From Takakia lepidozioides (lineage: Eukaryota > Plantae > Bryophyta): a stretch of 64,000 bases of DNA. Below, in pieces: positions 4,031 through 52,984 of the stretch (positions within the stretch are counted from its first letter, which is position 1; every line of letters starts with the position of its first letter). Position numbers and translations under genes: made by a program. The stretch is from contig CM060732.1 of assembly GCA_030704615.1 (NCBI GenBank), positions 32,550,001 to 32,614,000 on the forward strand, given 5' to 3'. The notes below the pieces were generated by a model that worked only from the letters and a program-made list of their open reading frames with translations, did no database searches and was not told where the DNA came from.

Positions 4031-5330
4031 ATATGCCAGAACTTAGTTATTGAAGGGTTAAAATTATTATTAAAAAAAAATTGTCAAACATTAGATCGAT
4101 AATATTTTGACCTGCATGTATCATTTCAACAACCTCAATTTCGTATACTCACTAAAATAAGCATAGCAAGGCTGTAGCCTAGTATGAGGCACTCTAGCAT
4201 TGTCATGGGGATCTGGGTTCAAATCCCCGTAATTAGTCTCTCTGCCTTCGGCCTAGGGCTTGTCATGGTTTTATTTGTGATTAGTTAGAAATAGTTATTT
4301 CTAACTAATTAGAACATTATACATTTATATTTATATTTTGTTGGCATTGGGATTTCATTTGGTTCCATGTGCCAAGTGAGGTGGCGAAACTCACTTGAGG
4401 TTATTTCCACGTGAGACGTAGGCAGACTCGTCTTCTTCTAGTTGAGCCTTCCGAGGCCTCTCTCGCTGCCATAGCTCTAGTATTTGAGATGGAGAGTGGG
4501 TAAAGTCTGTATGATGGAGTCATTTAGCAAAGGTGCCATTGGCTTTACTTATATAACGTGATAGAGTGATTTCTCCTCTTTTCACCATTTCCATATCACT
4601 AGAAGAAGACCTGTTTATATCTATGAGTGCAAGGTATTAGCATAGTTAGCACTTGTGTGTGGAAGAGAGCTTGATAGATAGCTCTTAAGTTACAAGGTGT
4701 TGCAAGGTTTGCAAGAAGAAAGCCTTGTGGTGTTTATGTACAAGAGGAGGTCTTCAAGGAGAGCCCCATTGAAAAGTTTGAGAGCTTGTGAAAAAGCTCT
4801 TGTTCTGCAAGTGTTGCAGAGTTTGAGGAGTTTAAGAAGAGCTCGGGTGTTAAGGAAGCAAGCGGTGCATGTGTGGAGCATGGTTTCAGCTTGTGGGAGT
4901 CTTCAACTTCAAGCTTAGGAGAGCTATGAGTGGAGGTAGACATCTGATTTCTCTTTGGGGCAGAATAGTGTATTTGTAGAGCATGTTTTGAGTTGGGGTT
5001 TCAATCCCAAGCTTGGGAAGAGCATGTCCATGGAAGTGGCAAGTGCAGGGCTGGATTAGGAGCTCTAGGAGGTGCACTATGGCCATAGAAGGAAGCACTA
5101 TAAGTGCATACGATGGCTAGAAGAAGGTATGTCATAGAAGCTCAATAGCTTGTTCTATGCTTGTTTCAATAAGTTCCATAGAAAAAGAGAGCTTGTTGTG
5201 TGGCAAATAGTTAGAGGCACTCTTGGTGGTCTATTGATGCTCAAGAAACCAAGAACGGCACCTTTGGTTGCTCCATAGAAGCCATAGCTCGTTGCAGCAA
5301 TCGCAGAGGCAAAGCGGCACAAACCCTAGC

Positions 5331-5412
5331 TTGGGAACGTATGGGAACGCGTGTGAACTCATTGGGAACTCCTTGGGAACTCATGGGAACGCATGGGAAC
5401 ACGTGGGAACAT
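5331..5412 (+). repeat. ~10-bp TGGGAAC-core tandem repeat
   Basis: About 8 copies of (T/A)TGGGAAC at 10-11 bp spacing. Confidence 0.85.
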
Positions 5413-5445
5413 TGCCCCAGAGTTGGGAGCACCACCATTGTCCCA

Positions 5446-5920
5446 TCGGATGAAGTACTGAGCCAGTGGATGAAAATTGGCGCTCCTGGATGAGAATCAG
5501 TTGTAGTGGATGCAACTAGGCCAGCGGATGAAATCGCGTCAGCGGATGAACTATCGCGCTATCGGATTAAACATCACGGCGACGGATGAAACTGCATCAG
5601 CGGATGAACTATCGCGCTATCGGATGAAAAATTGATGCAACGGATGAAACTGCGTCAGTGGATGAACTATCGCGCTATCGGATGAAAAATCACAGCGATG
5701 GATGAAACTGTGTCAGCGGATGAACTATCGTGCCATCGGATGAAAAATCATGGCGATGGATGAAACTGCGCCAGTGGATGAAATCGTGCCAGCGGATGAA
5801 ATATCGTGCCAGTGGATGAAATATCGTTGCGGATAAAATATCAGACCTGCGGATGAGAAATCTTGGTTTTGGATGAGATTTGGTCAGTGACGGATGAAAA
5901 ATTGACTGACTGTGGATACT
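5446..5920 (+). repeat. GGATGAA-core minisatellite (~20-bp monomers) with a 58-bp higher-order unit
   Basis: CAG(C/T)GGATGAA recurs at 5540, 5598, 5656, 5714 and 5772 (period 58 = 20+20+18). Confidence 0.9.
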
Positions 5921-5972
5921 TTTGGAACCTATTGGGGGCTTGTTTGAGGATTATTTGGGGTCTATTGAGGCC

Positions 5973-6735
5973 CGAGAAGTAGTGCGGTGATCTATCAAGG
6001 CTTGCTCACACAAAGCCTGAAACTCCCCCAAGAACTCTCTCCCCTGGTCCGTGAGTACCTCGGCTGGAGCACCAAAATGACTAAGCACTCGATCTAAGAA
6101 TGCATACGCAACCCCCTCATTTGCTTTGTCAGGCAATGCCACCAGTTCAATCCATTTGGAGAAGTGTTCCACCATCACTAGCACATACTTGTTGTGGCGA
6201 ATTGTCAATGGCAATGGGCCTACGAAGTCAAGACTCCAACGATAGCCCAAACCTATAATGGGTAAATGATGCAATTGTGGAGTAGGTGCGTTGAAAGAAG
6301 CCCGCACTCTATCACACACCATGCACCTTGCCACTAACTGTTGCACATCCGTATGCATGCCCCGCCACCAATACTGTCCTTGCAGCAAACTATGAGTGCG
6401 CCGAACCCCAAAATGTCTCAACTCCTCATGGCATGGCGTACCAATCGCGCTCGTTGTGTTGGATGAGGCACAATCCTCACTCGTCCATCCTCCCATACCC
6501 GGAGTAGGTGTGTCCCCTCCCACTTGAACCTCTTGGCTCGTTGTAGGACCCGATCCCTCTCCTTAGCAGTCACACTGGCTGTTGTCTCTCCGGTACGAAG
6601 GTATGTCAACACTGCTGTTAGTGAGGAGTTTGGTGGTACTAAGGATGTGCATGAAGATGGATCATCATGCACGCTATCTACATGACCAATCGCATGGGAT
6701 GGACCAGCTTGAGCTCCCATTGCTAGAATGCACAA
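5973..6735 (-). pseudogene. Gypsy integrase N-terminal half (HHCC zinc finger and first two catalytic Asp), cut by the inversion
   Basis: HEELRHFG...CMVC, WSLDFVGPLP, VLTDQGREF, ending at DHRTTSR. One frameshift near 6430. Confidence 0.92.
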
Positions 6736-6750
6736 AAAGACCGATGCATG

Positions 6751-7233
6751 TCATCCTGGCACCATCTCCTCATCCGTCTCACTATGCCACCGAGCTCCAA
6801 TATCATCATGCTCACTTGTGCATGGATTACGACTCAATCTATCTGCATCCCGATTAACAATACCGGCTCGATGCACCACCTGGAAGTCGTACTCTTGAAG
6901 CATAAGTGCCCACCGTGCAAGCTTCCCGGTAAGCTTGTCTGACTCCATCGACCACTTCAATGGTTGGTGATATGTGACAAGGGTGAAGAGATTGTCATAG
7001 AGGTAGCATCTGAAATGTGTCACTGCCCATACCCCAGCTAGACACTCCCCTTCATATGAACTATACTTCGCCTCGGCATCATTGTTCGAGCGGCTAGCAT
7101 ATGCCACTACGAACTCTCTTCCCTCATCATCTACCTGTGTGAGCACTGCTCCAATCCCCAGCATACTCCAATCCGTATGTAGCTGGAAATGCCGCTCCCG
7201 AATAGGCCGCCTCAGAATAGGTGCAGAAGTCAA
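6751..7233 (-). pseudogene. Gypsy RNase H domain
   Basis: FQLHTDWSMLGIGAVLTQ...VVAYASRS...YSSYEGECLA...HQPLKW...LARWALMLQEYDF. In frame with RT across a TGA at 7234-7236. Confidence 0.93.
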
Positions 7234-8200
7234 TCAAGCCTTGAGTTCCTCAAAGGCTTCCTCCTGCTCCTCCTCCCACTGCCACTCCTGACCTACCTTG
7301 GTTAACTTGGTAAAAGCCTTTGCAATGCTACTAAATCCCTTGACAAACCGTCGATAGTAGTTTGCTAATCCCATGAAAGCACGAACTCTGCTCACATCTA
7401 TGGGGCGTGGAATGCATGCAATGGCCTCCACCTTTGTCTGTTGAACACCCAATCCTCCAGGGTATATCATGTGGCCCAGATATTCAATCTGATTGTGGAA
7501 GAACTTGCACTTTCTGGGGTGCAGTTTCAACCCGTGCGCTCTCAAGCGCTCAAACACCACCTGAAGGTGTCTCTCATGCTCCTCAACCGTAGCACTAAAG
7601 ACGATGATGTCATCAATATAGCACCGGGCGAAGTCTAGCCCCGCGAGAATCCTATCCATGACCCTCTGAAACTCTGTAGGAGCATTCTTCAACCCAAACG
7701 GTAAGAACCGCCATTGGTACAAACAATCTTTCCCATGTTGGTCAATCCCCCAGAATGCCGTCTTTTGCTTGTCAGCCTCTTTGATTGGCAACTGGTGGTA
7801 ACTGGATCGCAAGTCCAATGTCCTAAACACCTTTGCATGCCCAATGGCATCAAAGATCTCTTCTGGAGTTGGCATGGCATATCTATCGGACTTAGTCTGA
7901 CGGTTCACAGGACGATAATCCCCACACATCATTCTTTCTGTCCAATTGCCATAGATATCCTTCTTAGCTGACATCACCGTTGCCGAGGCATACTCCCCGC
8001 CTGACAACTCCACCAATCCAGCTTTGAACAACTCCATATGACTGGATCAATGACCTCTTCATGTCATTATTTCGGTAGGGCCTTCGAAAGATTGGCGTGT
8101 CACTTGCCAAATCAATACGAATCTCCTAACCCTTCAAACTCCCCAAATCTTTCAATCCGAAGGCAAAGCAATTCCTATAAGCCCTTAGAAATCGCTGTAT
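7234..8200 (-). pseudogene. Gypsy reverse transcriptase domain
   Basis: CGDYRPVN, LDLRSSYHQ, PFGLKNAP, CYIDDIIVFS, YLGH. The N-terminal FAFGLKDLG...DTPIFRRPYR lies in the DNMT frame, joined by a frameshift near 8038. Confidence 0.95.
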
Positions 8201-8699
8201 CCTCCGTCTCTCTCCTCCGGTGACTGTAGGTCCAACATCTGGTTCCCAATTGTCCTCAGTGACTGCAACCTTGGGTACACCAGGCTTGGAGGTAGGAGAC
8301 GAATCCTTTGGTTGCTAGATAGCAACCTCTTGGGCCTTGTCCGCCCAATCTGACTGTGGCGTAGCCTCCACTTGCTCCGCCATAGCCACCTTGAGAACAT
8401 CCTCTGAGCAAGAAACATTCTCAACCTCTTCAAAAACCTTGGCCACCTTGGCCTCCAACTGATCCTCAGTCCATGGCTCTCCCCACTCCTCATACTGCTG
8501 CTTGAGAGATCCAATGACTCTCTCTTTGCGCATCTCATCACACATCTGCCATGGGTGTTTACAACCCACGATCCTGTACTCGCCCCCACTCACTGCCTCA
8601 ACCGTCTTGGTTGGCAGGGAGGATGCACTATCCAATGGGAGTGCAGAAGTAGCCATCAATGCTTGCAATCTCCGTTGTTTAGCCATGCACAAGCTAATT

Positions 8700-9532
8700 A
8701 TCTATGTCAAGCAATTTAGATCCATTGCTTGACCCAACACTTGGCGGCGTGATGCCTCTGACGGACCATTGTCTCGAAAAGCATGAGACGAGGGAAAGCT
8801 CATGAGCGTAGGCAAGGCCGCACGTGGCTACCCCACTCGATTGACCACTGCAAGAGGTGGACGGTCATCATGTCGCACCCTCTGTGGTTGTCTCCCTTGG
8901 TCCAAAATGCCCTCAACCGTGAGATTGGGTGGCCGATGAATGGAATCGTATGCTCTCTTGAGCAGCTCTGGTGGTGCAAGATTGGTCCACCACAATCGAG
9001 GTCGATGCGCGCGTGATTCCACCGCTGCTGCATCCAATAACACCGCCGATCCAATCCAAGACCGCACATGATGCACACTGGCCATTACCCTGGCCCGAGA
9101 ATCCCCCATAAGAGGAACATTCTCCAAGATATAGCCTAGAGGTTGCACTTGCCTCGTCTGCAAGTCCCGCAACACTCACAACATCTCCCAAAACAAATGC
9201 AATCGTGCATCATGCAAGCCATTCCCATGACCTGCGGGAGAGTGTCCTTGGTAAGGCCATCCAGCTATCACCAAGTTAATGGAACCATACCGGTCCAAAT
9301 CATCCGCCCCTAGCAAGGTAATGTCTACTGGCAAGGCCTTTTGATACCCTTGAATTGCTGAGAGATGCAACAACTCAGGATATCGGTGTGCGAGCAAGGC
9401 GATGTGGCGCATAGAAATATGCCGAGCTATCTTATCCTTCTCCACATATAAGTACTTGCGTACTTTAATCCATGCTTGCAACACTCCTACAAGCCTAGTG
9501 CTCATGCCTCCAAACAGCTCTAGCAAACAAAT
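8700..9532 (-). pseudogene. C5 cytosine-specific DNA methyltransferase domain (DNMT3/Dcm-like) embedded in the pol polyprotein
   Basis: Ordered motifs: I LLELFGGMS, II YVEKD, III DIT, IV LVIAGWPYQGHS (PCQ expected), V GLHDARLHLF, VI YILENV, VIII AHRPRLWWTN, X RRQVLGQAMD. One frame, with stops at 9176-9178, 8828-8830 and 8702-8704. Confidence 0.88.
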
Positions 9533-9929
9533 CCCTGAGTCAGATGGTTGCCAGGTAATGGGCACCGTGTCCAAAGGAGCTAACTCAGGAGGTCCAGGTG
9601 ATGTCACTGAACTCCCCTCACTCATCAATGGAAAGGCCTCCTGCCATGCTTGGTGCACACACTCGCCTGCTACTCGATGCAAATTCCCAACCGTACCCCA
9701 CAGTGGAATATGCACAGGCACATGAGGAAGCAAATCAGCCTTGTATGCCAATTGTTTGTCCTCATCAGGTGATGGCCTATCATCTGTATGGCTATTGCCC
9801 TCCAAGAGCTCACCACCCTAAGCCACCACCCCTGAAAATGCAGCCAATGTGGGCATCATGTTCCTATGATCCACCGCTACATTCCCAATAAACCACACTG
9901 GGAGTAGTGCACGTCGGCCATCTCCTGAC

Positions 9930-10330
9930 TGCCATTCCGGCCTATAGGATGTCGTTTCCTCCCAAAAGTCCAAAATAAAGCCCATGGGGTATAACACAGC
10001 CCCACCATTTACATCATAGGTCATCGAGTCCGTAACAATGGCTTTAGCTCTCATGACTGAGCCATCCGTAGGATGATCTGGCTGCAATCGAATGAAGAGC
10101 TCATGGCGTGTAATCCCTCGTGTCTTCTCTGAACCACCCAAAGATGTTTGAATTTGGAAAGGTCAAGGCTCCAAATCCGCCTCTGTAAGGCCCAAGCCTG
10201 CAATTGCTGCTCTTCCCAACATCAATGGATGTGCTCCCGAGTCCAACAAGACCCATAGTGGCCTATACCTCCTCCCGGCTGGGCCACCCAACTGAAACAC
10301 ACCATCCTGATTGTCCACCAGGACTACCCC
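9930..10330 (-). pseudogene. Retropepsin-type aspartic protease
   Basis: VLLDSGAHPLMLG active site and a YDV..GGAVL..MGFILDF C-terminal signature. In frame with the DNMT domain. Confidence 0.8.
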
Positions 10331-11194
10331 AGGAGTCACCATACTACGCTCAATGGCTGGTCTAGCTGATAACTCCTGCAACCTTGCAGTTGCCGCTTGC
10401 CATGGTGCAGCTGTGGCTGTCTTCACCCTTGAATCCAGGGCATTCATGCATTACACCTTATCCGCTATCCCCACAGATAGTGCCGATACATCACCACTCT
10501 CACAGAGTGCAGCTGCCAGTCTAAACACTGCAGCTAGCCGCATCCCCGGCATTGCAATTGTCGTGGCAGAAAACAATGGAGCTTGGCAAAACGTCGTAGC
10601 CACCCCCAACAATGTACTGGCTGCACCTTGCTTTGCAACACCACCCACTGGCATTTCCCGAGCCATACCAACTCTCCCCACTGGCACTCGTGGCTCTACC
10701 TCTGACACACTTGGGTGAGCGGGTACCATCGATGGCGTAGTTGGCACTGTCTCAGCCAATGTGAAAGACTATGGAAGCCTTGTCTGTCGACTTGCTTCCC
10801 CCCTTTGTGGATCAAAATCCACATCTGCTCCTCTTGGCTCATGAGCACGCATTGCTGCTCGAATGATAGCAGCTGTAGAGTCCACATGCAATGGTCCAGC
10901 AAGTGCGGCTCCACACATGAAGCCCATACCAATCTGGTCTTCCTTAGGCATAGGAGGTTGTGCAGGTGGGGCTTGAACCTCAGGCCTTGGAGTTGACGCC
11001 ACATTAGTGGCCATGGCAACAAGACGTTGCTCTAGCTGGGCAAGCCTATCCACCATGCCTTGGTCATGACCTTGACCTTGACCTTGTGCTCCTTGGTTTT
11101 GGTTACGACCTCCACCCGACCTCTACCTCCTCTACCTCTCTAGACTACATTGCCTCGTCCTCGGCCACCATTGTTCCCTTGGAACTGGCCTGGC

Positions 11195-12372
11195 CGTAGC
11201 TCAGGATGCAAGTCATAACAATGGGCCTCTTCATGCCCATACTTGCCACAATGCCCACACTATAGTTGTGTAGGTTGTGCATGTGCCGGCCCTTTGCCTC
11301 TCTCCGGGTAATCTCTCTTAACATAGGGTCCTCCACAATCCCAACATGTCACACCTGACTGTTGTTGGCCTGAGAATGAAGGAAGTGACCTCTACAATTG
11401 AGATCCTCTCTGTCCTTCCCTGGGCTTCGCCTGAGCCCCCTTGTTGCCTTGAGCACGTTGGGGTAGTGGTTGTTGTTGGCTAGGAGCCCCACTTCGTTGT
11501 GTCTCCTTACCAAACCCCACCATGACCACTCGCTCCTCCACCACATTGAGCTCTATCCGCTCTGCCAGCAAAAACACGTTTGCTAAGGTGGGTTGGTCCA
11601 CTTGTAGGAGAGTTGCATCCCGCACCCTTCTCCTCAGCTCCTTGTCCAATATCCCATACCAGAATTGGACTACTTGAGCTTCCGTAACCCATTGGATTAC
11701 ATTTATCAATCGCCTCATGCGCGCGTAAGCCTCCCTCAAACTCTTAGTAGGCTTGCGCTGGAACTCTTGCAAGCTCCACAATTTCTCCGTCCTTATCCCC
11801 TGGTAGTTTCTCCCCAACTCCTCGAAGAACTCCACAACTGGGTTAAAGGCAGGCACGGGAGCTGGTGCTGCAGCAAGAGCTTGAGTGGATTTCCCAGCTC
11901 CATCTTTACTTGTCCCACTACTAGTGCTTGCAGTTGGGGATGTTGGTGTAGCTACTGGTATCGCCGCTGCCATTGTGCCTCTAGTGATGGAGACATAGTC
12001 AGGTGACCAATATTGCCGCCACTCCTCAATCTCCACCTCATTTCCCCGCCTAAACTCATGGTAGTCATCCATAGGCGGCCCCTCAAGGTGCTGAAACAGC
12101 CCCTTCCACGCCATAAAAGGCGTAAACAGTTGTGGATTGCGCATCTGCTGCAAATCACACCAACTATCAAACTCCTGTATGAAATCATCAAGCTCGATGG
12201 TGCCCACAGCTCCCGAGTACCGACGTGGCCCCTTGGTAGCTCCATACATTTCCTCCATCGTATCCCACAACAATGGCACGGAAATGGCTTGCACCCTCGG
12301 CGAGAATCCTCCTAACTCTGAGTCTGAACCTTCCTCAGAAGACACTGAAGCTGAAGGTGGCCTAAACCGCAC
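11195..12372 (-). pseudogene. Gag with two CCHC zinc knuckles
   Basis: 326-aa ORF with LQEFQRKPTKSLREAYARMRRL...FWYGILDKELR (retrotransposon gag-like). Knuckles are CWDCGGPYVKRDY (degenerate) and CGHCGKYGHEEAHC. Confidence 0.85.
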
Positions 12373-12494
12373 ACCTCATCTTGTATACCCACTAGTATCC
12401 GGTAGATGGTGTTGTCACCTGACTGGAGAAATATGAATTGGGGACAGTGATGGGGAACTTTTCAGGATTGAGTAACTGTGTAGAGTGAAGGCCT

Positions 12495-13194
12495 CAGAAG
12501 GGACACCTAAGAGATTGGGACCTTCAACTGCCTTGGCTAGCTATGGGCTATAGATTCAGCAAACAAGCTTCACTTGCCTCCTTCTCACCTTACTTTCTTC
12601 TCTTCGGCCGAGAGCCGGATTTGCCTGCATCTATTCGCAGGGAGGTTGCAATAGTTCTCAACCTTGATGATCCGGATGTGTGGACACAAGCATGTGCCCA
12701 ACGGGCAGAGTTTTTCAAGAGAATCATGCCTATGGCTTTTGAGAACCTTGCTATTGCCCAACACCGAGACACATTGAGGTACGTCACTATACGTGGAGGG
12801 GGATATCGGCCAAATGTTCGGCGTTTCCACCCTGGGGACTATGTGTATCTGCAGCAGACAGCACCTACGACCTTGGAGGTCACCGCAGGACGTGTGATTC
12901 TAAGGGTCAGGGAGATGTTGCCTTCAAGAGTGTTGATTCTGGAGGGTCGAGATGGCATGGTATGGAAGGACCATGTGCGCAATTGTGCGCCATGTCACCT
13001 TCTACATATGGATGGGAGGATAGATCCTAACCTTGCAGTGGTACCTGCAGGGTTGCGTTGCATGCTATGACGCCACAACCATGTTGGTGTGTGACAAATG
13101 CTCAAGGGGGTGGCACATGGGATGCTTGACACCGCCACTTGAGGAGGTTCCTATCGGGGAATGGTTGTGTCCACGATGCCTTGGACAGAGGTAG
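12495..13194 (+). pseudogene. Integrase C-terminal half followed by a PHD finger
   Basis: QKGHLRDWDLQLPWLAMGYRFS...FSPYFLLFGREP...FHPGDYVYL...RCML, a small deletion/frameshift, then TMLVCDKCSRGWHMGCLTPPLEEVPIGEWLCPRC; stop at 13192-13194. Confidence 0.9.
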
Positions 13195-14094
13195 TGGGCA
13201 TGACAATGGTGAGGCGGACAAGTGACCCAAGGTCTAGCTAGTGGGGCTTCAATGTCATGGATACTCAACTGAAGATCATGGATTGTATGAAGGCGACTAA
13301 CGATGGGGCTACGTTTGCACCCGGCCTCTTGATCTATGGACTTCAGGTGTTGGGACTTGTGCGATTGAAGACCAAGCGATGATCTTATTGGGGTGGATAC
13401 TTGCAAGCTATCCGGTGTTAGAAGGACCTAATCACCAGCTAGGGGGGCGATTATGGCGTGGCTTTCTAGGACTATATGCTAGGAAGTGTGGTTGGACAGC
13501 GATGTATGTTGTGGCACAATGCTTAGGTGCACAACAGGCTCTACCCTTGTAGTGCATCATGCTTCTCCTATAGAAGAGAGCCCACGCAAAGGTATCAAAC
13601 AAATTGAAGATCATGCTCATATGTTGCACGTTCCCAGTTCATTGGTCATATCAATCCATATAAATATCCACCCACTGTATCAATCTAGAAAAAAGGTCCA
13701 ATGCAGGGTTAACACCTCTCCTTCCATCAATAGTATCAATATCAATATCTTATCATCTTGGTTACCTTAAATAGTGCTTGACCAATTAAGATAACTGGAT
13801 TTATCAATCCACAAGCCATCATTAGCCTTGCCTAGTATATCATTGGTTATATCACCCCTAGTCAATGTAAGCCACTCACCTAAGATGAAACATTAAATCA
13901 ACCACCACCCATCTTTAGCACTGCTAAATTAAATACCATGGTCTAAAATCATTATATCCAACAGGTAAAGATAGAGGTATTTGGTATCCTTCGACTCGTT
14001 ATAAGATAAGTATAATATCACCTTGAGAGCCTCACAGCGTCTGTCTTTTCAGTCAGCGTCAGTGTAGTTGTGATTTTTTGTGAATTAACTCATC

Positions 14095-14650
14095 ATGGCA
14101 ACTGTGATGAAAAAAGAACTGTGGCATTTGCTTACTGTAGATGATTTGGATATGAGCGTTACAGATGCAGCATTTCAGAGTCATGTTTTGTGTCGTTACG
14201 GCAACCGGTACAAAACCAACAGTGTCTTTGATTCCCCAAGTGCATTTTCATATTTGCATTGTCATGTTACAGACATCTATAGATTTACTACGGTGACCAT
14301 CACAGTCTCTGATTCTCTTGTGCAGACTCACTCTTACAAGCTCACACAAGGAGCTTTCATACGTTTGGAGAACTTTTCAATCCATAATAAGCAAAAGTTC
14401 GAAAGAGGACTTGGATATCGTGGTCAAGATCAGGTGAGCCACCAAAGTGGAGATCATTGTTTCATTCGTTTCATTTTATCTTCACTTTCTCGCTAGTGAT
14501 ACTGTTATGACTATCGTCAAAAAAAGTGCTGAAAAAATTGTTATGGCTATTATTGTGATGGTGATCATCGCCGTACGTGGAGAAGTCGACAACAAATTTG
14601 AGCTTACCATTTGTGGATGGAAACACACAGTCCGATATCTAGATAGTACG
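14095..14650 (+). pseudogene. RPA1-like OB-fold protein relic (type carried by plant Helitrons)
   Basis: YLHCHVTD...VTITVSDSLVQTHSYKLTQGAFIRLENFSI...IVVKI..ATKVEII fits an OB-fold pattern. Frameshift near 14405. No Rep/helicase was seen. Confidence 0.5.
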
Positions 14651-15899: not shown

Positions 15900-16130
15900 G
15901 CAGAGAGCACATAATAATTTGTTATCGACTTCTCCACATACGGCGATGATTACCACTACAATAGTCGCCATACCAAATCTTTTTAAATAGTATTACCAGC
16001 GAGAAAGTGAAGAGAAAATGAAACGAATGGAGTGATGATTTCCACTTTGGTGGCTGAGCTAATCTTGACCACGACATCCAAGTCCCATCTTTTGAACTTT
16101 TGCTTATTACGGAGTGAAAGGTTCTCCAAT
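15900..16130 (-). pseudogene. Second, inverted partial copy of the RPA-like sequence
   Basis: The reverse complement aligns with 14365-14650 (e.g. AATAAGCAAAAGTTC...GTGGTCAAGAT...GCCACCAAAGTGGA). Confidence 0.75.
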
Positions 16131-20954: not shown

Positions 20955-23585
20955 ATGGCGCTGTAGTGTGGATTCCCCATGGCGTGGGGTGCACTTGGCT
21001 TGACTTGTATTTGAGTGATGAGGTTATATATGCATGAGTTTATGCTTCAGCTTTGTGAGCTCGCATGAGCTTGTGCTTGTATTCTTCTTCTTTATCACTT
21101 GAGAAAGATGAGCTCGTATCTGTGAGTGCCAGATACGAGTTAGTTGTAGCACTTGTGGTTTTTGCTTGAGAATGAGAGAAACTAGGTTGTTATGCAAGGA
21201 GCACCGTGGAGCTCTTAGTTGTTAGAAGCGGAGGCGATGTGGGTACGAGGTGGTAGACCTTGACATTCGATCTTCAGCTTCAGAGATGAAAGCACCATAC
21301 TGCAGGTAATTCCAGAGCACCTTGATGGTTTCAGATTGTGTACATGCATGAGCAAGCACGATTGAGAAGAGGACCAGTCAAGAGCAGGTTATAGTGGCTT
21401 TGGTGGCAAAGCTGAGAACTGGACTTGGGAATGCGAGCTTTCATTGTGTGAAGGATTGCAAGACCAAGCGAAAGGGTTGATTTGGCTTGGGGCAAATCAG
21501 TGCACTTTGTGGAGTATGTTGAGAGTGGGTTTCAATCTCGAGCTTCAGCATTGAGAGGGCTCTTGTCATGGCAAGAGTAGGGCTGGAACAAGAGCTAAGA
21601 GGTGCGGCAAGGCCATGGAATGTGCACCTAGGGTTTCAGAGCTTGGAAGAAGAGCTCTTGCATCACAAGAGGAGTGTCTTGTGGCTGGAAATGTAAACCT
21701 TAGGGTTTCAGGAGCTTGGCAAAGGCCATGGAGTGCTTAGTCTTGTCTTAGAGAGCATCAAGGAGCCAAGGAGCCAAGATAGGGGGCTGATACCTCTTGT
21801 GTGAAGAGGTTGCATGTGTGGAGCATATATTCAGCTCATTGAAGCTTCTATCTTCAAGCTTGGAGGGCAAGCAAGGAATTGGGAAGGGCTTACTTCCCTT
21901 ATGTGAGGGCAATGCATGTGTGGAGCATGCTTTCGGCCTGTTGAAAGCTTGTACTTTCAAGTTTGGGAGTGCAAGAAAGGAAGGAAGGGGCTGATTTCCC
22001 TGTAGGGCATGTGTGAAGCATGCTTCCAGCCCGCTGAAGCTTGTATTTTCAGGTTGGTGGGTGCAAGAAATGAAGCAAAGGGGCTGATTCTCTTGTGGTG
22101 AAAGTGGGGCATGTGTGGAGCATGCCTTCAGTCCATTGGGCTTTTGTTTTCAAGCTTTAGAGAACTAGAAGAGAAGGTAAGGGGCTGATCTGCTCTTATG
22201 TGACAGTCCGACACTTGTACAGCGTGTTCTTAGTTGGGTTTCAACCTCAAGCCTAGATAGAGCATGGCTCTTGAAGTGGCAGATGTAGGGGGTTGGAATA
22301 GGCTCTAAAACAGATGCTATGGCCAAGGAAAACGCTTGAATGAGTGTTCACAAGGGCTGGAAACTAGCAAGGCTTGGTTGTTTGCCATTGAGTTTAGTGG
22401 CGTGTTTGGGGAGTCTAAGTGAGAAAGAAGACTTGGTTTGTGGCAACCATCTTCCTCATGGCTTAGGGCTACTATTGGTGGTGTGTGGGAGCCGAAAGAG
22501 CAAGAATACCTTGCTGATTTTTTCACAGCCGCCATACCGGTGCAAAGAAGCCTAGAGTCCAAGAGACACAAACCCTAGCTTGGCGTGGCTAAACCCCTTG
22601 GAGAAATGGCTAAACTGCCATGAGTGGCCATGGATGGGGCTGTGATGGGCTGTGACAGGCTGTGGCCTTTGGGGCTGTGACCCTGTGACCTTTGTAGGGC
22701 TGTGACAGGCTGTGCCTGTGGCCTTTGGGGTTGTGATGGGCTGTGACATGCTGTGACATGCTGTGACCTGTGGCCGTGGGGGCTGTGATAGGCTGTGACA
22801 TGTGGCCTTTGGGGCTGTGACGGGCTGCGGCCTGTGGGGCGATGACCCTGTGACCTGTGTAGGGCTGTGACAGGCTGTGGCCTGTGTGGGGCTGTGACGG
22901 CTGTGACCAGTGAGCTGTGTGGGCCTGTGCTGGTCTGTGGTGGCCCGTGTTGACCTGTGGACGGCCTGTGCTGACTCGTGGAGGCACTGGTGGACTGCCT
23001 AAGGACTGGCATGTGGTCTTGAAGGCCGAATTTGGAAGCTCGTGGAGGGCGGGTTGAGGAGTATCTTTATGATATTCCCATGGTCATGCAAGTGAGGGAA
23101 GAGAGGAGAGGAAGAGTGTTGGGATGAGGGCATGCTGGGGTTAGGCATTGCTTTAGCTTCTCTTCCTCGTAGTTTCCACCATCTCATTAGGCCAAGACCT
23201 TTCCGTAGGTGGAGGCAAGAGTCAGTCCGGGTTTGGGCTGGGATGTCCTTGTAGGAGCAACACCGTGGAGTTGTTTTTGGGGTGGGGGAGTTGTCGTTCT
23301 GATTTCTTGTGTTTGGATCCCCTCCATACCTGCATGCTTGATTGTGCGCCATGCTAGTTTTGTGTGGGCGCTTGTTTTTATAGGTGATTGGTCCGGATTT
23401 GATCACCGGCCAGTCCTAGAGCATGTTGTCGATGGTGAGGCTGGGGTGATGACCAGCCAGACCATCATTGTTTCTCCTGTGGTGAGGTTGGAGGTGATGA
23501 CCAGCCAACCATAGGAGTGCTTGCGGTGGATGCAGGTACAAGTATAGGCTATGTTAGGAACCTAGTATTATTTGAAGTTATACAC
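20955..23585 (+). mobile_element. Non-coding LTR/leader-like relic related to 4800-5335
   Basis: 22105-22330 aligns with 4865-5090 (GCATGTGTGGAGCATG...TTCAAGCTT...GGGTTTCAA...AGAGCATG...GAAGTGGCA). Both regions contain ACAAACCCTAGCTTGG followed by a tandem array. Limits are approximate. Confidence 0.55.
22635..22990 (+). repeat. GGCTGTGA/CCTGTG-rich degenerate minisatellite
   Basis: Dozens of CTGTG(A/G) units at ~7-10 bp spacing. Confidence 0.9.
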
Positions 23586-23949
23586 ATGCCCAAGTTTTCT
23601 TTGTTTAGAATGGACATTAGCAGTAATTTTGTGAAAATTCCACATCCACGTGGGTGTAACTCCCTTGACACCTATCAGTGGAGGGGACGATAGGGTGACA
23701 CGAGCCAGGAAATGCTGTGCAAATCTCACAGAGCCCTCTTGAGGAACTTAAAAGGTCACAGTGTACTTTATTTGTGGATGAGTACAGCTGTAACAGAGGC
23801 AGATCTATATCATTATTCATATCCATCTTGGTAAAGGTTTCTCGGAAGCTCAGAGCCAACTTAAGGGGAACACCCGGAATTGGTTTGAGCTGTGACCAAA
23901 TGTTGACCCATTTTGCATTCCCACGAACTGGGATAAGTCCCCAAGGCTA

Positions 23950-25560
<1,611 letters not shown>

Positions 25561-28369: not shown

Positions 28370-31356
28370 TTACTTAATCTGCAATCCCACCCTCAGATCC
28401 TGTGGCATGCTTCCAGGAAGTCGGCTTGTTATTGTGTTTATTGATGAGGTTCTGATTAACGGTTTAACAACTGCCGACATTGCTCCTAGGGATACTCTGA
28501 CCACTGGGCCCACAAGAAAAGGGAGCCCTAACCCCGGATTTGCATTGAGCTTGCCACCTTGCACAATTCATCTTAACGAGTGAGACCATTTGTCACTAGT
28601 ACTTGATGTCGCTGCCAAAAGATGTTGCCTGACCAGCCTGCTCCAAGGGCAGGGTAGGTGGGTAAGCGAACGGGGAACCCACTTAGTAAGCAACGCAGTA
28701 ATCTGCGATTGAGGATCAAGCACCCCCCAGCCCCCCATTCTTCTTACTCTAACAAAGCTGCTCCCAGCTGACCAAAGCTCTCTTATTCGCTAAGGATGGA
28801 GTTGCGCCCCAAATAAAATTCATCATCAATGATTTAACTTTCTTTAATAATCAGTGCTCCAGGCGACCACACTGAGGCTAGGAACCATAGGGAGGCCAGA
28901 AGGACTTGGTTAACAATCAAAGCTCTTCCAATGACAGAAAGATGTAGGGAACTCCAATAAGAGAGCTTTTTTTTCAACTTGCAGAGGACAGCATCAAACC
29001 TTATCTCATCATTCAAATCAGTGCCAACCAATTGACCTAGCAGCTCATGCGATTCTCCATCCAAGAGCCATCGCAAGCCTAGCTCAATTCCCCACGGAGA
29101 AGCTGTAGTGGGGTCTGACAGTTGACTCAACAAGCCGACCGACTTTCCCCAATTAATTTTAAGACCAGAGGCTGCACAGAAGGATTTCAACAAACTGAGA
29201 GCAGCATTGACATTGGAAAGAGAGGAATTGTTGATAAACAATGAGGTATCATCGGCATAAAGAGAAGATTTTATGGAGGAAGCAGGGGAGATATCAAGAG
29301 AATTAGGAATAACCAAGCCCAACGAATCTTGTCTCTTATCCATCAAGTGGCCTAGACCATCCGCAGCTATCAGAAATAGAAAGGGAGCCAGTGGGCATCC
29401 CTGTCTAACAGATTTGGATAGGGGAAAGGCTTTAGAGATCACACCATTAATCAAGACTCTGCTAGAGGCTGAAGAAAGTAGAATACGAATCCACTTCAGG
29501 AAGTTCCCATTAATACCAGCCGCTTCCAAAGCACCCCACAAGTAGCACCAGTTGATGTTATCGAAAGTTTTTTCAAAATTTAACATGAGGAGGGCCAACG
29601 GTTGGTTATCAGATCGAGCAAGATGCATCACCTCATTGGTCAAGAGTATGTTATCCAGAATCATTCTCTTTTTCAAGAAACCTGACTGTTCTGGTCTAAT
29701 CAACTTGGACAACAAAAGTTGAAGACGCCTCGCTAGAGCCTTGGCTATGATTTTGTAGGTAGAGTTTAACAAGGTGATCGGCCTGTAGTTAGACAACAAA
29801 TCACGATCCCCTTTTTTGAACACTAGGGTGATGACTCCCTGTGATAACTGCGAGGACATTATCCCTTTGTCCAAAATATCATTGGCCATTTTCAAGTTCA
29901 GTCATTCCCAACCACCCCCCATAGGGCAATGAAAAATTCAACTGGCAAACCATCCAAACCAGGAGTCTTCATCACACTTAGGGCTTCAAGGGGCAGACAA
30001 ACCAATCCGCTCAGCTGAAGAAAGAATTTTGGGAAAGGAATGAAGAACCTCATATCTTGATTCTAAGTGACGAGAGACCTCAACACTTGAAGAGAAGAGC
30101 TTAGCAAAATGCATAGCGGCTGCAGCAGCAATTTCCTTTGGTTTGGAGATGGAACAACCATTGGAATCTGTAATGGAATGGAGATGAGTAGCCTCCCTTC
30201 TTTGCTTTGCCTTCTGGAAAAAATAACCAGTCATTTTTTCACCCTTCAATGACCAGTTCACCCCGGCCCTTATGCGTTGGAATTTTTTTTTTTTAGCATC
30301 AACCTCAGCCAGGTTCCTTTTGGCAGAAAGATAGGATTCCATTGTCACCGCACCATGACTCCCTTCTTCAATCCTCCTTTGACAGTGAGCCAAGCATTTA
30401 GTGAGAGCTTTATGTCGTTGAGCTCTTTCAAGAGCAATAGAGCGAGAAAGGGATTGCGCCAACCTCCTAGTGGCCTGAAGCTTATGAAGGAAGGATATAG
30501 ATGGGGACTGGAATCCAGAGCCAGCAGCGGTCCATTCGCTTTTCAACTGCTGCAAACATTCCACCCGCTTCAAAATGCCAGGGTTTAGTTTGAAATAGCC
30601 TTGGCCTCTAGAATGTAAGCAAGGAGGTCTAAATTCAGCAGATACCACTGCATGGTCAAAGTCTGCAAGGATGGGGGTCTGAGCCATACCTCTAGCCCAA
30701 GACAGAGGGGAATGAGAACAGTAAACCCGGTCCAAACGAGCCATACACAAATTTGGTGGAGCTCTCAGATTGGACCATGTGAATCTCAATCCTTGAGAGG
30801 ATTATGAGTAAATGTCCACCAAACCCACTGAAAAGCAAAGCATGTCCCATGCCACTTGTTCCACATCGGATAATGATTGAGAGGCATGCACCAACCTATC
30901 ATTGAAATTATCAACCATATTGAAATCACCAGCAAGTGTCCAATTCAAGATATCAGGGAAACTTGTGATCTTATCTCTGATTATGTCCCAAAGAGCAGCC
31001 CGATCTAGGGATAGGTTGGGTGCGTAGACGTTGATAAAGGCTGCCTGGCCAAAAGAGGAGGAGGGTTCCGTGAAGGTCTGCACACTTTTTATTGAAGTAG
31101 CCAACGATGGGGATGCCAAAATCGCCATCCCCCCACGGGAGGAGGAGATAGTGGGGTTCCAGCAGGGCACCTGTGCTGGCCAGAAGCTATTTCCAATAGA
31201 TCTTATTTTGTTGTCATCTAACTTAGTCTCTTGCAGAAATATGATCGCTGAGGAGGAAAGAAAGGAAGAAGCCCAAAGTTTGACACGTCTTCTTTTAGGC
31301 ATGGTGGTATCTGAACCTATACCATGAATGTTCCAAGAGTGAAGTGACCAAGTCAT
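28370..31356 (-). mobile_element. L1/Tx1-type LINE ORF2 (APE endonuclease + RT), disrupted and lacking its 3' end
   Basis: SWNIHGI, IFLQETK, INVYAPN, LAGDFN, ARLDRVY; then KTPGLDG, NYRPITLLN, VRQGCPLAP, LYADD. In-frame stops and frameshifts are present. Sequence up to ~32180 may be degraded ORF1. Confidence 0.93.
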
Positions 31357-32189
31357 GTAGGAAATAGCATACAGCCCACAGAGAAGGCTCCACGATTTGA
31401 TGGCTAAAGGAGCATAGCAACAAATAAATGAAGATGGAGGAAGGGAAGCTGGAGGTTTGGACTAGACAACCAATTACATAAACTGAACTTGCCATCCTCC
31501 CAGCAGCAGGTACAAGTCTCAGACTTATGTAGCATCAACTGCCATTTAGCATAAAAGGCCTTACCAATGAAAGAGAGATCACATCCTCTGCCATATCCCA
31601 AAGACTGCCAGTCCATGCCACTAGTGATCCTTATACACACCAAGTGATCCTCAACAAGGAGATTTAGATCAACAGAGGAGAAGAGAGGGAGAAGGGCTTG
31701 AGAGCAGGAGTAAGGGAGCTCACCGGAGGAGGGAAGTGATAGCAAGGTCCATCAACGTGAAAAACTTGTCTTTGATGGGGGATCATCCTCGGAGGGCATG
31801 TTCCGTTGTGCATAGTGGAATTCTTCCACGATCTTCATACCCGCATCGAACACTGCAGACACAAACTTCCTGTTTCCAATTTTCCCAAACTCCACTGGAA
31901 TCCGATCCCCAGGCAGCCAAGTCAGCAAAGAGGAGGAGCTTTCAAGCTCAAGTCTGAGAGACGTATAGTAGGCAGTAGCTGAATACTATAATCTCCAGAA
32001 GAACATTGATTTTGGAAAGCACCAAAGAAGATAGGAGTGTCAGTGTTAAGAATGAGATGAGGAAGAAAATGCAGAAAGATGCTATGGATCTTAGAGAGTA
32101 TCACATCCATTTCTTTCCCCTGAGAGAGAGAATGGACATCTTCCGGGAAGATCCAGGAGCCCACAAAGGTATCCTTGCCAGTTACCAAA

Positions 32190-35901: not shown

Positions 35902-37044
35902 ATGGCTCTTGGCAGAAGTGGTTGTCTGTGCAAACTCGCGGCTGCAAAGTCTTGACTTGATACTGAACTGGCTACTGGAACATCTGCTAGCACTGGCCAT
36001 AGTATGCTTGTGAAACATGAGATGAGTGGTGGTCTGATGAGCTGTATATCGACATTTAACGAAGCATGCTATTTAGTGTACATGTACTGTTAGCCCATCA
36101 CATGTTACTACAGAAAAATCCCCATGTCTTGATGTGATCATGCAGGTGCTGGAGGGAAACCAGCTCGAAGAGAGGTCACTGTTACTTGGTGGAACAAAGT
36201 TGATAATCAAAGTCTAGTACAGGTATTCTCATCACTGCAGTCATGCACTTTGTTGGTCTTTATCTCGTGAGACTTCTCTCCCTGGTATAGTTGGAACCTC
36301 TGTTCTTTAGTCTTCTGTGATTTTCAGCTTAACGTCTTCTGATTTGATAAGGGGCAGGTGTACTCCTCTGTCAAGAAACAGAAGATGGTTGTGAGGTAGT
36401 GATATTCAGCAACGACTTTACGATCAATACAATACTGCAAAGCTTGTTTCTCGAGTGCCTCACTGCCAGTGGAACTTCCAGGTTCATGTACACCTAAAAA
36501 TTAAGTCCCACATCTATCTTCATAGATTCCTCAGAATTGGGTTCTCTAGCTTCAGGCAAGAATACATGTCCTCTTTTAGGTGCAGCCTGAACATAGGTTG
36601 GTTTTGCTTATTAGGCAGCGAAGCTCAACATACCAAGTGGGTTGTGGAAGATATATGTGTGGCTTAAATATGTTCTCACACCATCCAATGTGCTGGTGTG
36701 CAGGTGCAACCCTTCATAGGGCAGCCACATCAGATACATATACACCTGGCGGCACTTGTACATCCCCTAGTGGGTGGGTGTACTCACCTTGGGATCTCAT
36801 TCTATGAGAGATGGTCATGACCTGTCCAGTGATTGCAATCTTGGGTTGTGGATTCGTCGTATAAGTTTTTAAATGTGGCATCTTAATGGTCCATTCTGAA
36901 ACCATTAGGGGTGGACATTGAGCCGAGTGTTTGTACATCCGGTACGGTTAATATATGGTGGATGCATTTAAGGTGATAGTACAAGGGGTACATTACACTA
37001 AACAAACTTTGCGCTAACAAATGAGGATGGTTCATTGTAAACAG

Positions 37045-40000
37045 GTGACCCTCTGTATGTTGTCGGGGGCAGATGGCGAGCAGATTTTACTACTGGGGTC
37101 AGCAGCCTTCAGAAGGAGCTCGATCCTGCCGAGGTTGGGCAAGTTTCTGGCACGGGTGGGGATGTTAGGACATTATGTAAGGCAGGGCAACTAAAAGAGG
37201 CGATTCAGATTTTAAACCAACAAGGCATTTGGTCAGACTCCAATACTTGTGTCTTTATCTTGCAGCAGTGCATCAACATGAAAGCCCTAGCAGAGGGAAA
37301 GCAGGTGCATGCCCACATTGTCCAAAGTGACGTCAAGCCTAACATCATTGTACTTAACGCACTTATTAACATGTATGCCAAGTGTGGGAGTGTAGTGGAT
37401 GCACGCCAAGTGTTCAACAAAATGCCTGCACGAGATGTGTTTACGTGGACTTCAATGATTGGTGGGTATGCGAAGCATGGGTATGGTAGGGAGGCTTTGG
37501 AAATCTATGAGCAAATGAGATGGGAATCCATCGCTCCTAACAAAGTCACTTTCATTTGCATTCTCAAGGCATGTGCCAACTTAGGGACCCTCAAAAAGGG
37601 CAAGAAGGTCCATGGTGACCTCATTCAAGCTGGAATACTGCCAGATATCATTCTGGAAACCGTCCTTGTGGACATGTATGCAAAATGCAGAAGCATGAAG
37701 AATGCCCGTGAAGTGTTTGATAACATGGCTAAACGAGATGTAGTCTCATGGAATTGTATGATCACAGGATATTCTCAGCATGGATGCAGTAGGAAGGCTT
37801 TTGACATCTATGAGCAAATGATGCGGGAAGGGGTAACACCCACCAAGGTCACGTTCATTTCTGTTCTCAATGCAGGTGCCGCCCTGGGGGGCCTCGAAAA
37901 GGTGAAAGAGGTCCATGCCAACATCATCAAAGCTGGAGTTGTGCCAGATACCATTCTGGACACTGCCCTTGTTTATGTGTATTCTGAATGCAGGAGCATG
38001 AAGGATGCGCGTCAAGTTTTTGAGAGTATGACTCAACGAAATGTGGTCTCATGGAGTGCCATGATTGCAGGTTATGCCCGTCATGGGTGTGGAGGTGAAG
38101 CTTTAAAGATGTATGAGGAAATGCAACAGGAAGGGGTGACACCCAACAGGGTGACATTCATTTCCGTTCTCAAGGCGTGTGCCAGCCTAGAAACCCTGGA
38201 AAATGGCAAAGAAGTCCATGCTGACATTGTCAATGCTGGAATCAAACCCGATGTCATGCTGGAGACTGCCCTTGCTGACATGTATGCCAAATGTGGGAGT
38301 ATAAAGGATGCATGTCAAGTGTTCAACAATATGGCTCAACGAAATGTGATCTCATGGAGTGCAATGATTGCAGGATATGCTCAGCATGGGTTCGGCAGGG
38401 AGGCTTTGGAGATGTATGAGCAAATGATATGGGAAGGAGTGACACCTGACAAGGTCACTTTCATTTCCGTTCTCAAGACGTGTGCCAGCCTAGAAGCCCT
38501 GGGAAAGGGCAAAGAGGTCCATGCTGACATTGTCAAAGCTGGAATTGTGCCAGATAGCATTCTGGAAACTGCCCTTGCTAACATGTATGCCAGATGTGGG
38601 AGTGTGAAGGATGCACGTCAGGTGTTCGACAATATGTCTATACGAGATACAGTCTCATGGAACATGATGATCACAGGGTATGCTCAGCATGGGTGTGCTA
38701 GGGAGGCTGTTGGGCTGTATGCGCAAATGCTACGGGAAGGGGTGACTCCCAACAAGGTAACATTCATTTGCGTTCTCCATGCCTGTGCCAGCCTGGCAGA
38801 CCTAGAGAAGGGCCAAGTGGTCCATGCTGACATCATCAGAGCTGGATTCATGCCAGATAACACTGTGGACACTGCCCTTATTGATATGTATGCCAAGTGT
38901 GGGAGCATGAAGGATGCGCATCAAGTGTTCGAAAAAATGACCCAACAAGATGTGATCACATGGACTGCGATGATATCAGGATATGTTCAGCATGGTTGTG
39001 GTAGGGAGGCTTTCAAGATGTATGAGCGAATGATATGTGAAGGGGTGACGCCCAACGAGGTCACATTCATTTGTGTGCTCAATGCGTGTGCAAGTTTAGT
39101 GGCCTTGGAAAAGGGCCGACAGGTCCATGCTGACATCATCAAAGCTGGAATTTCGTCATATGTAAATTTGGAGAATACCCTCGTCAACATGTATGCCAAA
39201 TGTGGGAGCATGAAGGATGCGCGTCAAGTTTTCAACAGTATGTCCGAACGAGATGTCGTCTCATGGAGTGCAATGATCGCAGGATATGGCGAGCATGGGT
39301 GTGATAGAGAGGCTTTGGAGATGTATGAGCAAATGATAGAGGAAGGGGTGAGGCCTGATCAGGTCGCATTCATTTGTGTTCTCAATGTGTGCGTCCGCCT
39401 TGCAGCCCTGGAAAAGGGTAAAGAGGTCCATGCTGACATCCTCAAAACTGATCTTGCAACCTATATTAATTTGGAGAATACCCTTGTCAACATGTATGCA
39501 AAATGTGGGAGCATGAAGGATGCACGTCAATTATTTGATACTATGTCTAGAAAAGATGTGGTGTCATGGAGTGTAGTGATTGCTGGATATGGTCAGAATG
39601 GGTGTGCTAGGGAGGCCCTCCAACTATTTGAACAAATGCATCAAGAAGGCTCAAAGCCAAATGGTGTCACCTATATATCTCTTCTTTCTGCATGTAGCCA
39701 TGTGGGCCTAGTAGATGAAGGCTGTCACTATTTCGATTCCATGAGTCGAGATCAAAGCCTCAATCGGACAGTGGAGCATTTTGGCTGCATGGTGGACCTT
39801 CTTGGCCGTGCAGGGCGGCTGGATGAGGCAGAAGACTTGATTAGCAAAATGCCGATTGAACCAGCTGCTTCAGTGTGGGGGGCCTTGCTTGGTGCCTGCA
39901 GAATTCATGGCAATGTGGAGCTAGCAGAACGTGCGGCAAAATTTCTTCTCAGATGGGATCCACAGGATGCTGCAACTTACGTGTTGCTATCAAACATCTA

Positions 40001-40481
40001 TGCTGCAGCTGGCAGGTGGGAGGATACAGTGAAGGTGAGAAAAATGATGGAGGACAGAGGTGTCAGAAAAGAGGCAGGGCGTAGCTGCATTGAAGTGGAC
40101 AACCAGGTGCATACATTTGTTGTAGAAGACAACTCACACCCACAAATTAAGGAAATCCATTCAGAGCTGAGGAGATTGTATGGACAGATGAAGGAGGCCG
40201 GATATGTGCCTGACACACGCTTTGTATTGCATGACATAGAGGAGGAGCGAAAGGAATTTTCTCTTTGCTACCACAGCGAGAAGCTAGCCATTGGTTTTGG
40301 GCTGATCAGCATGCCCCCTGGGATGCCAATTCGTGTCATCAAGAACCTTCGGGTATGCGGTGACTGCCACACTGCCAGCAAGTTCATCTCGAGAATTGTT
40401 GGGCGAGCAGTTATAGTACGTGATGTCAACCGCTTTCACCACTTCCAAGATGGGGCTTGTTCTTGTGGTGATTACTGGTGA
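37045..40481 (+). CDS. PLS-class pentatricopeptide repeat protein with E1/E2/DYW deaminase domain (organellar C-to-U RNA editing factor); main exon
   Basis: Uninterrupted frame with eight 101-aa L-S-P triplets plus L2/S2, HSEKLA, CGDCH and terminal CSCGDYW. The frame is open back to a CAG acceptor at 37042-37044 (in-frame TAA at 37038), so the start codon probably lies in an upstream exon. Confidence 0.96.
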
Positions 40482-52688: not shown

Positions 52689-52984
52689 AAATATGGGCAA
52701 ATGACATGTATATGTAAAGTGTTTGTTTACACTAGAGATCGCACTTGGGCCTCAACATAGGAGATGCACTGGGATACATACGACATATGGCTTTTGGTCT
52801 CACATTCCAATTACAGCACATGGGCAAAAGACATAGGCTACCCTAGAGGTTGCACTTGGGCCTCGACAGAGGAGATGCATTGGGATACATAGAAGATCTT
52901 GCACTTGGGCTAAAATGTCACTAGACACTCGGGCCAACGGCACAGACTACCCTAGTATGGATTATTTCTATCTAGAATCTGATA

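Follow-up and report, generated by a model that had tools for sequence, protein, structure and literature searches.

A dead, inverted Gypsy-DNMT3 copy in Takakia lepidozioides and relatives that carry a DNMT3-like methyltransferase and an integrase PHD finger on either side of a conserved in-frame stop

Ty3/Gypsy retrotransposons with a DNMT3-like cytosine methyltransferase (DNMT) have already been described in streptophytes. KnitGypsy-Dnmt3 was reported with terminal repeats in the layout A-coding-B-A-B (de Mendoza 2018, PMC5890265), the name 'Gypsy-DNMT3' is used in bioRxiv 10.64898/2026.05.21.726589, and retrotransposon DNMT3 in streptophytes is mentioned in PMC12344493. The DNMT of KnitGypsy-Dnmt3 is under purifying selection, and the DNMT of the Klebsormidium nitens family produced no de novo methylation in yeast, a result that its authors call inconclusive (PMC5890265). 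Why retrotransposons carry cytosine methyltransferases is posed as an open question in both PMC5890265 and bioRxiv 2026.05.21.726589. The pairing of a histone reader with a cytosine methyltransferase, and with it the reader-plus-writer idea, is in print for the EpiLTRs of Cymbomonas and Euglena, which are LTR elements with a chromodomain, Dam and a DNMT (bioRxiv 10.64898/2026.05.21.726589). PHD fingers in retrotransposons have been called widespread (de Mendoza 2019, PMC6673714); the Chlamydomonas element Gypsy-7a_cRei has one in Gag-Pol (PMC9940879), and further fusions are listed in PMC8557442 and bioRxiv 2021.11.30.470311.

We analysed a window of 64,000 nucleotides from Takakia lepidozioides (contig CM060732.1, positions 32,550,001 to 32,614,000) and found a 9,276-bp Ty3/Gypsy copy at 4261-13536 that has an inverted middle and a 4-bp target duplication (Table 1). 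Judged by its sequence, the family is the already described Gypsy-DNMT3/KnitGypsy-Dnmt3. It shares with KnitGypsy-Dnmt3 the intronless DNMT3-like domain in a Ty3/Gypsy element, the order reverse transcriptase, RNase H, integrase (RT-RH-IN) and the A-coding-B-A-B repeats, which are complete in the relatives L006, L053 and L042, with a polypurine-like tract before the first B; the K. nitens proteins P0026, P0047, P0058 and P0099 are among its relatives (best 120 of 165). The published DNMT lies in the Pol ORF (PMC5890265), whereas in the clade of this copy the DNMT ends the Gag-protease (Gag-PR) ORF, before a stop, and a second order, RT-RH-DNMT-IN-PHD, also exists among relatives. The main text and three supplements of PMC5890265 contain no mention of a PHD; the domain cartoon in its Fig. 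4c may show one. Compared with the EpiLTRs, which have a chromodomain, a DNMT4-related enzyme and Dam, the pairing here is of PHD and DNMT3 (bioRxiv 10.64898/2026.05.21.726589). Like chromoviruses, the family has a histone-reader domain at the integrase C terminus, but this is a PHD rather than a chromodomain, its predicted mark is H3K4me0 rather than H3K9me, a DNMT is present and the terminal repeats are split; profile searches of the window, L021, L066 and relatives gave no Chromo match. An accessory PHD, proposed as an insertion guide, is also common to Gypsy-7a_cRei, REM1, CR1 LINEs, Chlamys PLEs and cnidarian fusions. In REM1 the PHD is said to lie on a separate antisense ORF. For Gypsy-7a_cRei, the figure legend in PMC9940879 lists no DNMT. 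A literature search, extending to neither figures and bioRxiv supplements nor most subscription papers, returned nothing on elements with both PHD and DNMT3, on the stop or on the two orders. To the described family we add three points: the PHD is near-obligate, the domains occur in two orders, and in the clade of this copy writer and reader are parted by a conserved stop of the readthrough type.

Table 1. Coordinates of the Gypsy-DNMT3 copy and its parts in the window
Feature	Position	Strand	Remarks
TSD left copy (GGCT)	4257..4260	+	same four bases 3' of element at 13537-13540
5' terminal repeat A, ~338 bp	4261..4598	+	starts TGTCA, ends CA
5' leader with 58-bp tandem array at 5522-5811	4599..5965	+	between repeat A and inversion break (placement inferred)
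Left inversion breakpoint	5966..5972	+	7-bp inverted microhomology with 12490-12496
Integrase zinc finger and catalytic core	5972..6750	-	PF17921, PF00665; cut before catalytic Glu; frameshift near 6430
Reverse transcriptase and RNase H	6754..8277	-	PF00078, PF17917, PF17919; stops and frameshift near 8040
In-frame stop TAG CAA CCA, readthrough-type context	8309..8317	-	stop codon 8317-8315, DNMT-RT linker in frame
DNMT3-like cytosine methyltransferase, dead	8600..9550	-	Tyr at catalytic Cys position (codon at 9253)
Aspartic protease, LLDSGA motif	9821..10330	-	sequence
Gag N-terminal part	11188..12258	-	PF03732 weak, E 0.0023
~90 bp unshared with other copies	12400..12489	.	at right inversion break
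Integrase C-terminal half	12490..13067	+	end of core, long helix, beta-rich C-terminal domain
PHD finger	13059..13182	+	frameshift near 13070; codon of second zinc ligand destroyed
Conserved 3' motif ending in polypurine-tract-like run	13417..13450	+	directly before repeat B
3' terminal repeat B	13451..13536	+	ends CACAACA; local match to L006 B
TSD right copy (GGCT)	13537..13540	+	

Self-comparison of the window revealed no ordinary LTR pair. We recognised the boundaries of the element because the layout of relatives and joints between reads showed split terminal repeats, an arrangement that likely hides such elements from LTR finders. In same-species contigs of other genomic copies, position 4597 is joined to 13450, forming an A-B junction. 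The start of repeat A resembles the A of L006, L080 and L053 (342 bp in L006); its sequence likeness to the A of relatives is weak. The 34-bp 3' motif is 85-94% identical in relatives with diverged flanks, and the score of the match between repeat B and that of L006 was reached by none of 200 shuffles. A chance match of the 4-bp target duplication is expected about once in 128, two candidate starts having been inspected, and a duplication of 4 bp (AAGG) flanks the intact relative L006 as well. Phygy of REXdb was considered for its size and rejected: its 4-bp duplication is NCGN (PMC6317226, supplement table), a comparison that involves only the two clean duplications of this copy and L006. REXdb, as given in PMC6317226, lists no PHD or methylase. 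The Takakia copy reads A-coding-B, without the further A-B of some relatives. Tract and B end were both found at 12 loci, of which seven stop at B and five run on into A; copies that end at the first B with host DNA next are L016, L017, L019, L020, L025, L034, L060 and this copy. Recombination of one B repeat with the other may have removed the second A-B.

The family is highly repeated in the source species: in run X1, summed contig depth reached about 1e5-5e5 in most bins of the coding part and about 400 just beyond the element, a depth that does not amount to a copy number. The copy itself is dead on all counts. Besides lacking the catalytic Cys, its DNMT has internal stops and a deletion of about 35 amino acids (alignment to Marchantia P0270). 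The Gag region is 52-56% identical to Marchantia ORF1 proteins, and the protease-homologous region of L021 matched Asp_protease_2 weakly (E 2e-4, below the cut-off). Depletion of CpG and CHG was considered as a sign of self-methylation and proved uninformative, with a CpG observed/expected ratio of 0.49 in the element, 0.42 in a PPR gene and 0.33 in a LINE of the window.

On the minus strand, from 12258 to 5972, the order is Gag, protease, DNMT, RT, RNase H and integrase core, and the rest of the integrase lies on the plus strand, about 25 codons including the catalytic Glu being missing at the inversion break. The uninverted relatives carry Gag-PR-DNMT-RT-RH-IN-PHD on a single strand. Of the best 120 of 165 relatives of the integrase tail, 100 have matches to the core on the minus strand as well as to the tail on the plus strand; the core-to-tail gap is 23-26 amino acids in 97 of these 100, and their identities to core and tail correlate with r 0.92. 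Gag, protease or DNMT opposite to an integrase tail was found in none of 80 loci (best 80 of 496). An alternative is that the plus-strand IN-PHD piece is a different element that landed beside the DNMT element. The halves do lie on opposite strands, and the junction contains about 90 bp that other copies do not share; contig depth in bin 12403-12453 is 67, compared with about 2e5-4e5 in the preceding bins, with loose ends at 12399. However, both parts lie within one target duplication and one set of terminal repeats, identity to the relatives rises and falls together in the two halves, and the halves abut within 25 codons. This alternative is largely refuted, and we regard it as extremely improbable. 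Target duplication, terminal repeats and colinearity agree with the sequence-only reading that IN-PHD and DNMT belong to the same element.

The integrase C-terminal half is 73-79% identical to its closest relatives (among the best 120 of 165). As the sequence-only reading had proposed, a PHD finger follows the integrase tail: the match to Pfam PF00628 has an E value of 4.7e-11 and 43 bits, above the cut-off of 24. The search of PDB matched 75 sequences, and the 60 listed are all PHD-finger proteins or fragments, the top matches including CHD4, KMT2D, PHF12, Lid/KDM5, PHF21A/BHC80, ATXR5 and AIRE. In the predicted model of the intact relative P0001 (mean pLDDT 79), which aligns to PFV and Ty3 integrases, the PHD is the last module after the integrase modules; it lies at the end of the ORF, behind the core, the long helix and the beta-rich C-terminal domain, and the proposed position was borne out. 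The finger was misread in one respect, having been quoted as RCML...CDKC...PRC in a single frame. It spans two frames: the 193-amino-acid frame at 12489-13070 (+) ends in RCML and a stop (frame 1), the rest of the finger up to 13182 is in frame 3, and the finger is broken by the frameshift. Here the distance from the first to the third zinc ligand is 31 nt, against 45 nt in 67 of the 88 relatives that match the full C4HC3 pattern (88 of 120, best 120 of 165). This short spacing shows that about 14 nt are missing and that the codon of the second ligand is destroyed.

The residues of the PHD bear on the mark that it might read. The aromatic-cage Trp of PHD fingers that read K4me3 (ING, BPTF) presumably sits two residues before the zinc His; at this position, 122 of 133 PHD relatives have Gly and none has Trp. 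The Asp after the third Cys, an R2-binding position, is present in 128 of 133, and the positions before the last Trp hold Pro in 116 and Gly in 109 of the 133. Despite its damage, this copy retains the R2-binding Asp and the A1-pocket residues Pro, Gly and Trp. Residues D312, P331, G333 and W335 of KDM5A bind H3 R2 and A1 (bioRxiv 715474), and PMC3471955, which defines two classes of PHD reader, counts BHC80, AIRE and CHD4 among those of K4me0. Since the pocket for the H3 N terminus is kept and the K4me3-cage Trp is absent, it is plausible that the PHD of the family is an H3K4me0-type reader. Three positions before the first Cys, 51 of 88 relatives have an acidic residue (Asp or Glu). That K4-pocket position is Gly here and in the closest relatives of this copy, and K4 selectivity may be weak in this clade for that reason. 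One could suppose that the PHD is a general nucleosome tether or a structural part of the intasome with little K4 selectivity, the DNMT working separately, for instance to mask cDNA or the promoter of the element. A conserved A1/R2 pocket beside a variable acidic position would fit such a role, as would the tolerance of KDM5A PHD1 for lower K4 methylation states (bioRxiv 715474), but the closest solved PHD fingers include known K4me0-preferring readers, and we consider the proposal unlikely.

The DNMT domain matched 23 PDB sequences, all of them DNMT3A, DNMT3B or DNMT3C, and its catalytic Cys and Glu are kept in 169 and 174 of 176 relatives, respectively. Co-occurrence of PHD and DNMT in uninverted copies, which the sequence-only reading had left to be checked, was found among the metagenome loci (numbered L; best 80 of 496): 31 bear a DNMT, and 25 of these 31 also bear a PHD, all on one strand. 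Of the remaining six, four are truncated where their contig stops, and the other two are long enough to hold a PHD but gave no match. In a set of 282 proteins, drawn partly from the integrase-tail search and partly from DNMT searches, 71 have both domains, and a PHD is present in 68 of the 69 proteins that have a DNMT and a complete integrase tail. These counts suggest that the link between PHD and DNMT is near-obligate in the family. The named relatives are from Marchantia, Calypogeia, Sphagnum, Klebsormidium, Pleodorina and Volvox and from entries labelled Chrzof1; none was found in viral contigs. Six proteins of Marchantia polymorpha (P0270, P0271, P0369, P0370, P0376 and P0377; gene models Mp4g09160, Mp8g17980, MpVg00370, MpVg00540, Mp5g06330 and Mp5g06860) are ORF1 of the family, each an uninterrupted Gag-PR-DNMT with intact PCQ and ENV motifs.

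The relatives show two domain orders, with the DNMT either before RT, as in this copy, or between RNase H and integrase. The second, RT-RH-DNMT-IN-PHD, is the largest class of long DNMT matches and includes Pleodorina P0077. An apparently intact element of this order lies at L066:1368-11405, with ORFs of 1163 and 2182 amino acids in one frame that are split by a single TAG GCA CAC; this stop is before RT, and the DNMT is on its downstream side. A quick RT tree recovers the second order as a group of 48 rows (SH-aLRT 89) and places this copy with L080, L017 and L006 in an 18-row group (SH-aLRT 98). K. nitens P0099 is outside a 37-row group that holds this copy, in a tree whose root is unsettled. 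We claim no order of events, because outgroup RTs fell inside one side of the tree.

Algal-type relatives (P0070, P0071, P0076, P0106 and others; L066:10300-11405) have a beta-rich domain and a methyltransferase-like domain after the PHD. A tail of at least 200 amino acids follows the PHD in 62 of 133 PHD proteins, and DPFxG and SPP[FW]-like motifs occur together in 14 of the 133 (loose pattern). Matches of the algal-type tail to the Pfam D12 adenine methyltransferase were weak (E about 0.003, below the cut-off), its model has alternating strands and helices with pLDDT mostly above 90, Foldseek matched only integrases, and phmmer gave one match at chance level. The tail is possibly a second methyltransferase, of the amino type (6mA/4mC).

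The clade of this copy has a stop codon between DNMT and RT. In the intact relative L021, two ORFs in the same frame, Gag-PR-DNMT (1369 amino acids) and RT-RH-IN-PHD (1047 amino acids), are split by TAG CAG TTA, the only stop of that element. The stop of this copy is followed by CAA CCA, a context that none of its 12 other listed stops has. In tobacco mosaic virus and other plant viruses, the consensus for readthrough is UAG-CAR-YYA (PMC3159437). Among 22 close loci (RT at least 55% identical, from the best 80 of 496), 21 have a stop with CAR-YY at the homologous place, 15 of them in frame at the expected distance and six in copies with frameshifts or deletions; L035 is the single one without the motif. 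Three pairs of these loci are near-duplicates (96-99%), and the stop-bearing loci form three sub-lineages that are mutually 43-51% identical over 260 nt downstream (ungapped). As a control, CAR-YY was found at 10 of 825 decay stops and the strict CAR-YYA at one of 825. The strict form is present in this copy and in five of the 21 loci, and the other 16 read CAA-CCY, mostly followed by ATG. Consistent with a boundary at this place, the six Marchantia ORF1 proteins end in the same DNMT-RT linker, and many RT-first ORFs of 1031-1056 amino acids begin just after it. No such stop was found in the scanned interval of 13 more distant loci, and P0024, P0099 and P0367 have DNMT and RT in the same ORF, without a stop from DNMT to PHD in P0024 and P0367 (the latter 2811 amino acids, from protease to PHD); fused and split forms therefore both persist. 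As in type I readthrough of tobamoviruses and gag-pol readthrough in MuLV, the stop is in frame and precedes the polymerase, and it stands in a CAR-YY context (PMC3159437). Here, by contrast, the stop comes after protease and DNMT, and both would be produced at the level of Gag.

Readthrough at this stop is probable. It could instead be a true terminator, with RT-RH-IN-PHD made separately by re-initiation, splicing or a subgenomic RNA, and never as one chain with the DNMT in this clade. Re-initiation is allowed by the ATG that follows CAA-CCY and that most copies of the largest sub-lineage carry two codons past the stop, and six of the 21 loci have TAA (TAA-CAA-TCA in four). However, this copy, L021 and the TAA-CAA-TCA group have no such ATG, and the frame and the CAR-YY context are kept where the flanking amino acids are not; true termination in this clade is thus quite improbable in our view.

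The stop also bears on the sequence-only reading of a chromatin reader and a methylation writer in one polyprotein. The two domains do belong to one element and one frame, but the conserved in-frame stop lies between them. In the clade of this copy, DNMT and PHD are about 1,100 codons apart on two ORFs, and profile searches found no ADD, PWWP or PHD beside the DNMT in ORF1, so that neither the proposed analogy to the ADD reader of DNMT3 nor a single reader-writer polyprotein could be upheld. Writer and reader would mostly be made apart and not as one reader-writer unit. A coupled unit, in which the DNMT remains attached to IN-PHD, either uncleaved or within the intasome, and methylation of the insertion site is licensed by the PHD as by ADD in DNMT3A, would agree with the almost constant presence of the PHD in proteins with a DNMT and complete tail, and it is more plausible in the second order, where the DNMT is directly before the integrase in the same ORF, also in the intact L066. 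The separation by stop and distance in the clade of this copy weighs against coupling, as does the position of the DNMT, which differs between clades. Because the DNMT moved while the PHD stayed on the integrase, a fixed interface between them is argued against, and coupling seems improbable.

Instead, we favour a reading in which this locus is a dead, inverted copy of a Gypsy-DNMT3 element whose active relatives use a leaky stop, methylate their cDNA and tether their integrase through the PHD; as a whole, we give it a probability of roughly 0.5. In active relatives, ribosomes would mostly terminate after Gag-PR-DNMT, and occasional readthrough of the UAG would add RT-RH-IN-PHD. Made at the level of Gag, the DNMT would be abundant in the particle. 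Processing of the polyprotein by the protease is established for Ty3/Gypsy elements generally, and such cleavage would separate the DNMT from IN-PHD. The DNMT could then methylate the new cDNA, a step to which we give slightly less than an even chance. Carried on the integrase, the PHD would anchor it to nucleosomes whose H3 tail is free and unmethylated at K4; the conserved pocket makes binding of H3 rather likely, and the chances that insertion is thereby steered away from H3K4me3 promoters are evenly balanced. One and the same cDNA would be acted on first by one domain and then by the other, not by an allosterically coupled reader and writer. A broader proposal, that one lineage from chlorophytes to bryophytes keeps a DNMT3 together with an H3K4me0-reading PHD on its integrase and tunes their dose by shifting the methyltransferase from one side of a leaky stop to the other, is more doubtful.

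If true, particles of the land-plant clade would be packed with DNMT3, and their cDNA would arrive methylated and land in K4-unmethylated chromatin. In the algal-type clade, DNMT, integrase, PHD and methyltransferase-like tail would all be parts of the readthrough product, which is rare. Families of this kind that are highly repeated would thereby themselves lay down part of the methylome of the host. The PHD link and a stop that sets the dose of DNMT lead to specific predictions of which mark, which product and what ratio. At least six annotated intact Gag-PR-DNMT genes in M. polymorpha make these questions approachable in a model plant, and several Marchantia gene models labelled 'PHD-type' or 'DNA methyltransferase' are pieces of transposons.

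Elsewhere in the window, the stretch 21478-22325, close to tandem arrays, is 68-80% similar to the element leader at 4860-5090; no coding region of the family turned up next to it. Just right of the element, 14365-14598 and 15916-16129 form an inverted pair of about 230 bp with 78% identity. A LINE remnant with endonuclease and RT occupies 28834-31461 (-), and MULE-type transposase fragments at 49185-51901 (+; Pfam match 50313-50801) lie near tandem arrays at 50917-53984. An uninterrupted PPR ORF of 1146 amino acids with E, E+ and DYW domains is at 37041-40481 (+) and is indicative of a land-plant host. A fragment of an MCM helicase P-loop domain is at 23947-24264 (-).
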